A stretch of DNA of 43,318 nucleotides from Candidatus Woesebacteria bacterium (GCA_002686465.1 NZCP01000040.1:1-43318), one strand, 5' to 3'. Positions 13,117 through 17,324 are shown, counted from the stretch's first letter. The notes: generated by a model from the sequence alone, not told the origin. Numbers and translations are program-made.

Positions 13117-13938
13117 CTACGCTACAGCTATTTTTATTCCTGGTCCCATTGACGCAGAAATAACAGCCTTTTTTACTTTTTTGGAACCTATAGCTTCAAT
13201 CACAGCTTTTATATTTTCCGATATTTCGCGTCCTGGCTGATTTGTTTTACCAATAGTGGTATGGATTAAAGGTGCGTCTTTTTGGGTTTTTAGACTTATA
13301 GAATTACCACCAAACTTCTTTTTTGCCTGCTCCGGATTTTCTGTAATTGTTCCCTGCTTGGGGTTAGGCATAAGACCACGGGGACCCAGGGTTTTGGCAA
13401 ACGGTACCAACTTCGGCATCATTGCAGGTGACGCAAGTAAGACATCAAAGTCAATTTTCCCCTTTTTTAGTTTTTCAACTGTTTTCTCATCCGCAATTTC
13501 GATTTTCTTCTTTGTGCCTGTGGAGTGAGGGAGTTCTGTTTGTGTATTAATACCTTCCTTGCCAACAACTAAGTGCAGTTCAACAGAACCAGGGAAGGCC
13601 GAAAACGAGGTTTTCTGAACTAACGTTGCAGCCTCGGAAGGCGTGTAGGTTTTGGCAGGGTCAACCTTTGCACGAGCGGCTAGATATTTCTTGCCAACAT
13701 GCTTTGGTTCTTTAGCCTTCTTTTCTTCCTTTTCGGGTTGTGACGCTTCTGTTTCTTCCTCAACTGGTGTTTCACCACCTACAACTACAACACGTTCTCC
13801 ACCCTTGAGCCCGGGAATATGAACCCCTTTTTCCTCCCGCTGGCTTCTTTTTTTCTGCCGGCTAGCGGATTCCTTTTTTGTCTCTTGCTCGGAAGAATCT
13901 GCACCTTCATTAATTACTGTAATTTTTGTTTTACCCAT
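13117..13938 (-). CDS. rplA: 50S ribosomal protein L1 (N-terminal extension, internal deletions)
   Basis: FPGSVELH, LPHSTG, DFDVLLASP, LGPRGLMPNPKQGT, SASMGPGIKI. Confidence 0.95.
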   Translation of the reverse strand: MGKTKITVINEGADSSEQETKKESASRQKKRSQREEKGVHIPGLKGGERVVVVGGETPVEEETEASQPEKEEKKAKEPKHVGKKYLAARAKVDPAKTYTPSEAATLVQKTSFSAFPGSVELHLVVGKEGINTQTELPHSTGTKKKIEIADEKTVEKLKKGKIDFDVLLASPAMMPKLVPFAKTLGPRGLMPNPKQGTITENPEQAKKKFGGNSISLKTQKDAPLIHTTIGKTNQPGREISENIKAVIEAIGSKKVKKAVISASMGPGIKIAVA

Positions 13939-16572: not shown

Positions 16573-16767
16573 TTACTCGTCCCGCTTTTTTGCTAGCTCA
16601 CGCAAATGTCGAACTCTGTAGAGTTGTTCTTTGCGACGTTCAGACTTAGTCGTGTGTCGCTCCCGATCTTTAACTTCTAATAAAAGACCAGATTGTAGTA
16701 TTCTTTTTCGAAACCGAGCGATCAATCTGTCGGACGATTCGCCAGGCTTTGCTTTGACAACTACCAT
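16573..16767 (-). CDS. rpsU: 30S ribosomal protein S21
   Basis: GESSDRLIARFRK...GLLLEVKDRERHTTKSERR; SD-like AAAGGGGG upstream. Confidence 0.85.
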   Translation of the reverse strand: MVVVKAKPGESSDRLIARFRKRILQSGLLLEVKDRERHTTKSERRKEQLYRVRHLRELAKKRDE

Positions 16768-16847
16768 TCATATCTCAACCCCCTTTCAAATTCGGCAGAA
16801 ATTGGAGTAACTATGGGAATTATACCACATTATCACTTTAGTGATTC

Positions 16848-17008
16848 AGCAGGGGTGGAGGGAATAAGTCTACCTTTGCTTTGCAAACGATCTTGATCCT
16901 TCCACTATTTAGATGAACAAACTGCAAAAATGCAGCCTGTTTTAACTAGCAGGGGTGGAGGGAATAAGTCTACCTTTGCTTCGCAAACGATCTTGATCCC
17001 TCCACTAT
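16848..17008 (-). repeat. Two 61-bp direct repeats (59/61 identical) each carrying the 17 nt at the 3' end of the tRNA-Trp locus
   Basis: 16848-16908 and 16948-17008; GCAGGGGTGGAGGGAAT recurs at 16849, 16949 and 17049. Confidence 0.95.
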
Positions 17009-17049
17009 ATACAAATATTTCAGACACAACGGTCTGAAATATCCGTATG

Positions 17050-17120
17050 CAGGGGTGGAGGGAATCGAACCCCCGTTACCGGTTTTGGAGACCGGTGTCC
17101 TACCACTGAACGACACCCCT
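17050..17120 (-). tRNA. tRNA-Trp (CCA)
   Basis: AGGGGTG...CCGGT-CTCCAAA-ACCGG...GGTTCGATTCC...CACCCCTG cloverleaf. Confidence 0.97.
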
Positions 17121-17150
17121 AGATAAAAGTTCAAAACTCAAAAGTCAAAA

Positions 17151-17324
17151 CTATTTCAACTTCTGTCTTTCTTTATGCTCTGTTTGTTTACGACACCTTC
17201 GGCAAAACTTACGCAAGGTAAGTTTACCTTCCATGTTTGTCTTGTTTTTTTCAGTTATATAATTCTGACTTTTACAATCAGAACAAACTAATCCATAAAG
17301 TTGTCTTCCACCTCTTTTAGCCAT
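17151..17324 (-). CDS. rpmG: 50S ribosomal protein L33 (Zn-ribbon type)
   Basis: Own translation: MAKRGGRQLYGLVCSDCKSQNYITEKNKTNMEGKLTLRKFCRRCRKQTEHKERQKLK; SD AAAGGAG. Confidence 0.96.
   Translation of the reverse strand: MAKRGGRQLYGLVCSDCKSQNYITEKNKTNMEGKLTLRKFCRRCRKQTEHKERQKLK

Follow-up and report, generated by a model that had tools for sequence, protein, structure and literature searches.

How does a tRNA gene come to be followed by copies of its own 3' end, and what are the sequences that carry these copies? The question is posed by a 43,318-nt stretch of DNA from Candidatus Woesebacteria bacterium (GCA_002686465.1, NZCP01000040.1:1-43318), here called the window, in which two 100-nt repeat units stand directly behind a tRNA-Trp gene. 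The genome that carries the window (G000) is about 0.9 Mb in size and of the candidate-phyla type. The reading favoured here, at a probability of roughly 0.55, is that the units represent gene-less, DNA-level insertion modules of the type known in Escherichia coli as tRNA-linked repeats (TLRs), and that insertion took place twice. The construction of TLRs is thus found in a very distant ultra-small genome, and it is common behind many tRNA species, with a variable cargo that includes small nuclease genes. This turns the nature of TLRs into a testable question, on a mobile system that may target the ends of stable-RNA genes.

Anatomy of the array

The tRNA-Trp gene has no encoded CCA end, and the segment that is copied consists of its last 17 nt (17049-17065). 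A repeat search finds three exact copies of this 17-mer, GCAGGGGTGGAGGGAAT on the plus strand, starting at 16849, 16949 and 17049, a spacing of exactly 100 nt. Read on the minus strand, the tRNA end is ATTCCCTCCACCCCTGC, and it closes both units without a change. The search also gives two 64-nt copies, 16848-16911 and 16948-17011, with 95% identity (3 of 64 positions differ). On the minus strand each 100-nt unit is made up of a 40-nt spacer and then a 60-nt body (Table 1). The two bodies, A and B, are identical at 58 of 60 positions (97%). The two spacers are identical at 11 of 40, and their global alignment score is equalled by 83% of 2000 shuffles.

What do the bodies represent? The 5' arm of unit A, GTGGAGGGA, is exactly complementary to TCCCTCCAC, which comprises the T-stem 3' strand and three acceptor bases of the copied tRNA end; the arm is 9 bp long. 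It differs from the T-stem 5' strand of tRNA-Trp itself, which is GGGGG with a G.T pair and has AAC before it. The body is predicted to fold as a pseudo T arm, where the arm and the copied T-stem/acceptor strand close around a quasi-palindromic core. Two changes set unit B apart from unit A: one unpairs a position of the 5' arm, leaving a single uncompensated A.C mismatch (GTGGAAGGA), and the other lies in the apical loop (GCAAAGC for GCGAAGC). Folded as single-stranded DNA, body A has a predicted energy of -13.1 kcal/mol (z -4.7, with 0 of 200 shuffles as good) and body B one of -8.3 kcal/mol (z -2.35, 4 of 200). The spacers fold as well, spacer 1 at -10.1 kcal/mol (z -7.3, 0 of 200) and spacer 2 at -7.1 kcal/mol (z -3.0, 2 of 200). 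A terminator scan finds the spacer 2 hairpin to be terminator-like on the plus strand.

A first-pass annotation of the window had pointed to repeats of a 100-bp period behind tRNA-Trp, to a repeat 5' part antisense to the tRNA 3' strand, to spacers that are unrelated yet folded and to an ATCAC/GTGAT hairpin past the last repeat. All of these are borne out by the figures above and by the positions in Table 1.

There is no further occurrence of the unit in the 0.9-Mb genome. Of 4227 Rfam models, those of tRNAs alone score above threshold; the best other model over the array, MIR1120, reaches 22 bits against a gathering score of 86. No recombinase gene or remnant is found between the copies, where there are 83 nt with only spurious open reading frames (ORFs) of 40 and 54 aa. 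The array also fails as a CRISPR, having only two repeats of 60-64 nt and hairpins for spacers, and no cas-like ORF appears in the ORF list between rplL and 22 kb (no cas family scan was made).

Table 1. Positions of the array, of adjoining features and of two nuclease genes elsewhere in G000; coordinates are those of the window unless a contig is named.
Feature	Position	Strand	Description
tRNA-Trp (anticodon CCA)	17049-17120 (start 17049 or 17050 by ARAGORN and Rfam)	minus	ARAGORN; Rfam tRNA, 66.1 bits
Spacer 1	17009-17048	minus	near-perfect 17-bp hairpin ATACGGATATTTCAGAC / GTCTGAAATATTTGTAT, begins at first base past the tRNA
Unit A body	16949-17008	minus	5' arm GTGGAGGGA, core AAGATCGTTTGC GAA GCAAAGGTAGACTT, 17-nt copy ATTCCCTCCACCCCTGC (16949-16965)
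Spacer 2	16909-16948	minus	hairpin AACAGGCTGCA TTTT TGCAGTTTGTT
Unit B body	16849-16908	minus	ends in second 17-nt copy (16849-16865)
Third small hairpin	16832-16845	minus	ATCAC TAAA GTGAT, directly past the last copy; from the sequence
Extended -10-like element TGTGGTATAAT	16819-16829	minus	about 50 nt upstream of the rpsU start; read by eye
Presumed rpsU (ribosomal protein S21)	16573-16767	minus	downstream of the array; ORF list
Presumed rpmG (ribosomal protein L33)	17151-17324	minus	upstream of tRNA-Trp; ORF list
GIY-YIG gene, 83-aa frame	contig C57, 34009-34215	same as tRNA	starts 46 nt past tRNA-Ser(gct)
GIY-YIG gene, 96-aa frame	contig C36, 5190-5399	same as tRNA	starts 94 nt past tRNA-Gly(ccc)

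Relation to tRNA-linked repeats of E. coli

Repeats of this kind were first described by Egan and Landy (1978), as a 178-bp repeat at tyrT, and Rudd (1999) counted 22 TLRs at ten loci (both as cited in PMC8144298). A TLR is defined there by an 18-19-bp 3' end that is identical to that of the tRNA or rRNA upstream; one to five are present per locus, in tRNA and rRNA operons (PMC8144298). RrB is transcribed, and its transcript is processed 3 nt past the repeat; in vitro it is bound by Hfq and CsrA (PMC8144298). The other TLRs are presented there as without known function, and most TLRs as having had no accepted origin or function since the description of 1978 (PMC8144298). A preprint passage on rttR and tyrT offers no mechanism.

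The G000 array has the features of this definition. Unit A begins at the base past tRNA-Trp on the same strand, the identity with the tRNA 3' end is 17/17, twice (one to two bases shorter than in E. coli), and there are two units. The tyrT precedent that the first-pass annotation had named is thus apt, the more so as tyrT and serX motifs are found in a family of the same build in bacteria of the candidate phyla radiation (CPR), as described below.

A further likeness is an observation made here and is not part of the published definition. In the tyrT/tyrV and serX units a 5' arm complements the copied T-stem/acceptor strand, with GGGGAAGGAT/ATCCTTCCCC in tyrT/tyrV and GGGGGGGAT/ATCCCCCCC in serX. 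The three tyrV units (178 nt; L363, K-12 1286000-1287800) read GGGGAAGG ATGAGAAG CTTCGAC ... GAGTA ATCCTTCCCC CACCACCA, and the three serX units (181 nt; L365, K-12 1096900-1097800) read GGGGGGG ATGAGAAG CCCCGAC ... GCGAGCGAAGCGAGTCA ATCCCCCCC TCACCGCCA. At rrnB a terminator hairpin comes after each copy, and the TLR lies between terminators T1 and T2.

TLRs and the G000 units thus share a same-strand position just past a tRNA or 5S gene, a copy of the upstream 3' end that closes the unit, a complementary 5' arm (tyrT/tyrV, serX), the GCGAAGC mini-hairpin and a hairpin after the copies (rrnB). They differ in that the copy is 17 nt in G000 and 18-19 nt in E. coli, and the units 100 nt as against 178-181 nt. 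The G000 spacers are mutually unrelated, whereas the E. coli spacers are repeated with the unit. The G000 core is a short AT-rich palindrome in which the TLR motifs ATGAGAAG/GAGCGAAGCGAGTC are at best vestigial (ATCAAGAT, GCGAAGC): the motif after the arm, ATCAAGAT, matches ATGAGAAG at 4 of 8 positions, with the complementary arm present (9 bp in unit A).

The heptamer GCGAAGC/GCTTCGC recurs in several of these elements. It is present in unit A (window 16974-16986), in the rrnB (L364, 260-280), tyrT and serX TLRs, in units of two related genomes (G008, G009) and in a spacer on contig C57 of G000. GCGAAGC forms an unusually stable DNA mini-hairpin.

A conserved family in ultra-small bacteria

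Are there other elements of this build? The units of two genomes, G088 and G225, both behind tRNA-Trp, are near-identical over the 18-mer GGATGAGAAGTTTACCCT, which is present in 124 or more metagenome contigs and has no match in viral contigs. Among genomes, members of the family are seen in G088, G225 and G083. A same-strand tRNA lies at most 260 nt upstream (usually 45-58 nt) of 47 of 80 distinct copies, among the matches listed. These tRNAs are of 11 species (Gln, Ser, Tyr, Gly, Lys, Glu, Cys, Arg, His, Thr and Asn), and in 24 of the 47 cases the last 12 nt of the tRNA (with its end as defined here) are exactly repeated in the unit.

The consensus consists of the tRNA end, a spacer, a 5' arm, ATGAGAAGTTTACCCTGAG..TCGAAGGGAAT, and the T-stem 3' and acceptor 3' strands. 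The spacer is a T-run terminator hairpin or a conserved hairpin of the ACTTCGACAAGCTCAG type. In effect, the unit is a T arm in which loop bases 54-56 are replaced by about 30 nt. Arms follow the local tRNA: across 65 units the mean number of contiguous pairs is 5.26, against 3.04 +/- 0.14 (maximum 3.66) when partners are shuffled 1000 times. There are 44 different local T stems with which the arms covary, and RNAalifold gives 8-18 double changes per pair. Two readings of the conserved loop, made by eye, were dropped: a hammerhead-like one, whose core does not fit, and one resembling a K-turn or box C/D.

The family also carries cargo. Three loci (L235, L248 and L286) have a GIY-YIG ORF of about 95-99 aa inside the spacer hairpin, and other copies bound gene-holding segments of 0.9-2.5 kb. 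Tandem arrays exist as well, at L252 (111 nt) and L278 (99 nt), where whole units with their spacers are duplicated. No Rfam family matches the conserved element, and a literature search found no paper describing the GGATGAGAAGTTTACCCT family.

How does this family relate to TLRs and to the G000 array? ATGAGAAG follows the 5' arm at the same place in the CPR family and in the tyrT/tyrV and serX TLRs, and serX additionally has a 16-nt sequence, GCGAGCGAAGCGAGTC, common to CPR units such as L287. GGATGAGAAG has 15 sites in K-12, six of which are tyrV/serX TLR units; with ten of the 15 examined, the other four are coding sequence. A covariance model of the family, R1 (37 members, 59 positions, 11 pairs), scores the G088 and G225 units at 59-60 bits and ranks the three TLR units highest at the tyrV locus, weakly, at about 9 bits. 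Given the common build and the placement of ATGAGAAG, together with GCGAGCGAAGCGAGTC in serX, it is concluded from the sequences that the CPR family and at least the tyrT and serX TLRs appear to be related. No paper that links them was found in the literature search, whose reach did not include Rudd (1999).

The G000 array has in common with the family the tRNA end, the hairpin spacer, the 5' arm, the expanded T loop, the copy of the T-stem 3' and acceptor 3' strands, and the tandem arrangement. It differs in its AT-rich spacer hairpins, which are not of the ACTTCGACAAGCTCAG type, in its loop, which is another AT-rich palindrome, and in having no GIY-YIG gene at the array. It is filed here as a variant of the TLR kind that stands outside the conserved sequence family.

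Insertion or inheritance?

The first-pass annotation had suggested that other tRNA genes of G000 be searched for analogous units. A 3'-end copy downstream is found at 2 of 44 tRNA genes called by ARAGORN, those of tRNA-Trp and tRNA-Gln(ctg), so that one further case emerged. At the latter (contig C44, 28700-29573, minus strand) a SpoU-family methylase gene comes next after the tRNA, and behind it are a AAATAGGTTCGAATAGCG...CGCCAGC module and a copy of the tRNA end, TCGAATCCTAGTCCCACAGC, in which one of the last 15 nt is mismatched. The arrangement resembles a cassette of a single gene, set at the end of a tRNA. Three small GIY-YIG genes are present in G000 (contigs C57, C36 and C44), two of them directly 3' of tRNA genes on the same strand (Table 1). 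Small hairpins precede these two, and the one on contig C57 contains GCTTCGC...GCGAAGC.

Among related genomes the units are patchily distributed. A tRNA-Trp match is found in 81 of 139 genomes of the order, and 85 distinct tRNA-Trp loci were scanned for a copy of 12 nt with at most one mismatch, up to 900 nt downstream (a few loci have less than 900 nt). Eight of the 85 loci have such a copy, in seven genomes (G000, G009, G015, G088, G124, G101 and, on two contigs, G064); G008 has a degenerate one. The unit interiors are unlike between genomes, and the layout recurs: tRNA end, hairpin (often terminator-like), arm complementary to the T-stem 3' strand, variable interior, copy.

Several patterns argue for insertion and against inheritance. 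G015 has a unit that is absent from G013 of the same genus, which has an identical tRNA-Trp. The first unit of G009 carries the 3' end of a G006-type tRNA-Trp, preceded by the T-stem 5' strand of that tRNA. The two G064 contigs have a common distal flank with different inserts, one of which is a YdjC gene. Finally, a G064-type unit is found in G083 behind what is taken to be a tmRNA gene (ARAGORN in tRNA mode calls no gene there), and its acceptor part matches the tmRNA.

CCACCCCTGC followed after 60-90 nt by a second CCACCCCTGC was sought in genome contigs (at least 120 stretches); of 80 loci only L076 and L093 are linked to tRNA-Trp, and the others are unrelated repeats or chance. GGAGGRATGAGAA as such is not enriched in the order: it matches 9 times, and its reversed control 12 times. 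Two matches are known units (G064, G101), and among the seven inspected the one linked to the G083 tmRNA is the only new unit. Matches at G042 166101 (coding-like sequence) and on G109 C55 (with no tRNA there) were set aside as chance.

The G000 core recurs in two other genomes of the order only. In G034 it is found upstream of tRNA-Ser(gga), with a copy of the first 13 nt of that tRNA on one side and a partial complement on the other; in G019 it is away from any tRNA. The core thus behaves as a small dispersed palindrome, tied to tRNA ends on either side. Copies of tRNA 5' ends (13-22 nt) with a partial complement are also seen upstream of tRNA genes, at L192/L193 (G064, 60 nt before tRNA-Trp) and L360 (G034, 1470-1550). 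These are the 5'-side counterpart of the 3' units.

How might the units have been inserted?

The first-pass annotation had proposed iterative insertion at a tRNA attachment site. Repeated insertion is the part that is favoured here, on the strength of the unrelated spacers, the patchy distribution, the foreign-tRNA 3' ends and the cargo-bearing versions. The integrase mechanism that was implied fares less well, there being no recombinase between the copies.

A mobile-element-like process at the DNA level might target the segment from the T loop to the 3' end of stable-RNA genes. Each module consists of a variable hairpin spacer and then a pseudo T arm, the latter formed by the copied 17-nt T-stem 3'/acceptor 3' strand and its complementary arm, with a small palindromic core in place of the T loop. 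Insertion would leave the tRNA gene intact, since the insert has the last 17-21 nt of the gene on either side. As the spacers are unrelated, the array would stem from two separate insertion events and not from one duplication. Is the copy a duplication of the target, or is it carried by the element? Chimeras such as L309, one of the units with mismatched arms, where an intact tRNA goes with a local distal 3' arm and with a 5' arm from another tRNA-Ser type, would favour duplication. The L248 unit has the T stem and acceptor strand of another tRNA-Gln variant; together with the G009 unit, its foreign 3' end indicates that copies can travel with the element. Judged by context, small GIY-YIG nucleases and large serine recombinases (LSRs) are candidate enzymes. 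At present the modules probably ride along as inert DNA, with no dedicated function and at most with read-through as part of the tRNA trailer.

Known systems offer partial parallels. Integrative elements that target tRNA genes leave attachment-site repeats, and defective elements may accrete in tandem at one tRNA. There, as in G000, the inserted DNA is bounded by direct repeats of a tRNA 3' segment whose first bases belong to the T loop, and one tRNA may gather an array; the G000 units differ in being 100 nt long and without a recombinase, and the arms of the conserved family adapt to many tRNA species. Integron attC sites are imperfect hairpins with complementary conserved ends and a 7-nt core that follow the cassette cargo and are recognised by an IntI-type integrase. 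The units likewise have a terminal imperfect hairpin with complementary conserved ends and a centre of variable length, and follow cargo that ranges from a bare hairpin to genes. They differ from attC in having no IntI-type integrase beside the site and in their common segment, which is 17-21 nt of tRNA.

The third parallel is with the Ssn nucleases: these proteins, about 94 aa in length, consist of a single GIY-YIG domain, and short hairpin repeats flank their genes (Chenal et al., 2025; PMC11893778). The CPR metagenome loci resemble them in having a small GIY-YIG ORF (about 95-99 aa) within the hairpin of a tRNA-trailing element. TLR-type elements differ in their link to tRNA, a word absent from the main text of PMC11893778. 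The Ssn-related motif is missing from the three conserved-family loci tested, and it occurs 3 times in the whole G000 genome, against 1.7 in shuffles. At the tRNA-Trp locus no ssnA-like GIY-YIG gene is flanked by the array.

Could all these elements belong to one system? A wider proposal, possible but doubtful at present, is a pan-bacterial cassette system that docks at the T-arm-to-3'-end segment of stable-RNA genes, with the TLR units as its recombination ends. A cassette would consist of cargo (none, a hairpin, a GIY-YIG gene or another gene) and a folded pseudo T arm in imitation of the target hairpin. Its insertion might pass through a single-stranded or hairpin intermediate and restore the tRNA end. 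If this were true, the E. coli TLRs would be fossils of the system and the G000 array would represent two empty cassettes. For annotation, the array is a warning that a tRNA 3' fragment found behind a tRNA gene of such a genome is not necessarily the mark of a decayed prophage.

A number of results weigh against two insertions of a TLR-type module at the G000 locus. Both units are exactly 100 nt despite their unrelated spacers, an equality not expected of two independent insertions. The pattern of a 97% conserved body beside fully diverged spacers is also what selection on a functional body would produce. According to the ORF list there is no nuclease or recombinase gene at the array, and the published degenerate Ssn-related motif is on neither strand of 16780-17130. 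No empty site of a close relative could be aligned to that of G000, and the boundaries of insertion are for this reason deduced and not seen. A 25-nt probe of the G000 core gave 0 matches in viral, genome and metagenome collections, from which the record of the window itself may be excluded. With filters off, R1 gives no match to the array at E values up to 10, so that membership in the group is based on architecture and on a short GCGAAGC/ATnAnGA resemblance. Within the conserved family, 24 of the 65 units have fewer than 5 arm pairs; pairing is thus not universal.

Recombinase islands at the same site

Two copies of the tRNA-Trp end on one contig are found in four of 401 genomes of the class in a pattern scan. 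The copies are 11,240 bp apart in G338, 8,356 bp in G509 and 108 bp in G225, as against 100 bp, twice, for the three copies of G000. The two large segments are islands (L231, 11.2 kb, in G338 and L232, 8.4 kb, in G509), each bounded by tRNA-Trp and a copy of its last 16-21 nt that begins in the T loop, as in G000. Both start with an LSR gene (Resolvase, Recombinase and Zn_ribbon_recom domains) whose 3' end overlaps tRNA-Trp antisense, and both carry defence-type cargo (SMODS, AbiEii-like AAA ATPase or Mrr-type nuclease genes). LSR homologues are present in 94 of the 139 genomes of the order, and by coordinates an LSR gene adjoins tRNA-Trp in five, namely G007, G042, G045, G029 and G059 (the gene has stops there).

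Could the G000 units be scars of such islands? LSR islands would have entered at the T-loop-to-3'-end segment of tRNA-Trp and rebuilt the tRNA, and two deletions would then have reduced them to the distal arm and the attachment-site copy. The shared site, the copy that starts in the T loop and the frequency of LSR genes speak for this alternative, and at the distal junction of G509 an inverted copy of the core, GGCCGGAGG, a hairpin and then the core can be seen by eye. The match of R1 to this junction is weak (9.9 bits, E 3.6), however, and no inverted core copy is seen by eye at the G338 junction. No remnant of a recombinase lies between the G000 copies, and two independent decays to exactly 100 nt are unlikely. 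A fixed attachment site also explains poorly a conserved family that stands behind at least 11 tRNA species with arms matching the local tRNA, and L309 is better explained by target duplication than by a T-loop crossover. The idea stays alive on account of the common site, but the 100-nt units and the many tRNA species would be left unexplained by the islands, and it is considered unlikely. A symmetric LSR attP reading was dropped, as the inverted arm is 43 nt from the core and does not adjoin it.

Some observations on these loci can be added. In G225 (L233, 940-1040) the first copy lies outside any tRNA recognised by ARAGORN and resembles a T arm with about 22 nt inserted in the loop. In front of it is a AAATAGGTTCGAAC... 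module, which stands in the same place at many orphan units of metagenome contigs. The sole LSR gene of G000 (contig C3, 5038-6621) is cut by the contig end, and its last codons (..VDPRGIEPRRPD..) run antisense through tRNA-like sequence. About 250 nt downstream of this gene is what is presumably the start of an RNase P RNA-like sequence (GGAAAGTCCGG).

Trailer RNA, duplication or artefact?

Might the units act as RNA? The other reading of the first-pass annotation was that of processed tRNA-mimic small RNAs. By analogy, they could be trailer RNAs that are co-transcribed by read-through and cut by tRNA 3'-processing enzymes, to serve as small RNAs or as buffers in processing or termination. 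RrA, RrB, RrF and rtT of E. coli are the precedent proposed for such roles. The conserved body beside unrelated spacers, the stable fold, the hairpin after each 3'-end copy, as in rrnB, and the processing and protein binding of RrB are consistent with this. Units are nevertheless absent from 77 of the 85 tRNA-Trp loci of the order and have unrelated interiors from genome to genome; the closing helix of unit B has an uncompensated mismatch, there is no Rfam match, and the remaining TLRs offer no known function to argue from. A role as trailer RNA seems improbable on this balance.

If a 100-nt trailer segment had simply been duplicated locally in tandem, with the 17-nt repeat as the site of slippage or unequal crossing-over, and had then diverged, the exact 100-nt period, present twice, would be accounted for. 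Such a duplication has parallels in the L252, L278, tyrT (178 nt) and serX (181 nt) arrays, where whole units are duplicated with their spacers. Uniform neutral divergence, however, cannot give spacers with 11/40 identity that are still clean hairpins next to bodies that differ at 2 of 60 positions, and the origin of the first unit is left unexplained; duplication is thus very unlikely.

Sequencing reads bear on the last alternative. A search of sequencing runs gave one DNA run (X1) with 0.46 of the words, and no RNA run. The Logan unitigs of X1, at a depth of about 2.5, end at 16848 and resume at 17039. No read-derived piece from the four runs X1, X21, X22 and X2 spans 16849-17038; the X2 pieces are tRNAs of other organisms. 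A 60-nt repeat and a 40-nt palindrome would cause breaks of this kind in a k-mer graph, an agreement that is not proof. That the array is an assembly artefact of a low-coverage metagenome bin is hardly credible, even with shallow unitigs from a sole strong run that miss the repeat interior, since an assembler would collapse a repeat and not invent one, there are 3 differences in 64 positions between the copies, which also have different flanks, the breaks fall at the repeat edge and palindrome, and analogous arrays are found in many independent assemblies.

Neighbourhood of the array

The order on the minus strand, from ARAGORN and the ORF list, is tRNA-Thr, tRNA-Tyr, tRNA-Thr, rpmG, tRNA-Trp, array and rpsU. 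Beyond rpsU are presumably galU, on the opposite strand, and then secE, nusG, rplK, rplA, rplJ and rplL, as named from their translations. The first-pass annotation had noted that rpsU and galU separate this tRNA from secE. That is correct, but it looks incidental, as the tRNA-Trp/rpsU neighbourhood is not common to family members. A promoter scan that requires a -35 hexamer called no minus-strand promoter, TGTGGTATAAT included.

The G000 bin has a second tRNA-Trp gene (contig C34, 702-775), which encodes CCA and is 86% identical to the first, and two different tmRNA genes (C10, 7415-7784, and C57, 35892-36272). With two types of tRNA-Trp and two tmRNAs, the bin may be a mixture of two organisms or strains. 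Within the window, the ORF at 13117-13938 on the minus strand, presumably rplA, has an N-terminal extension of about 90 aa that is rich in charged residues.

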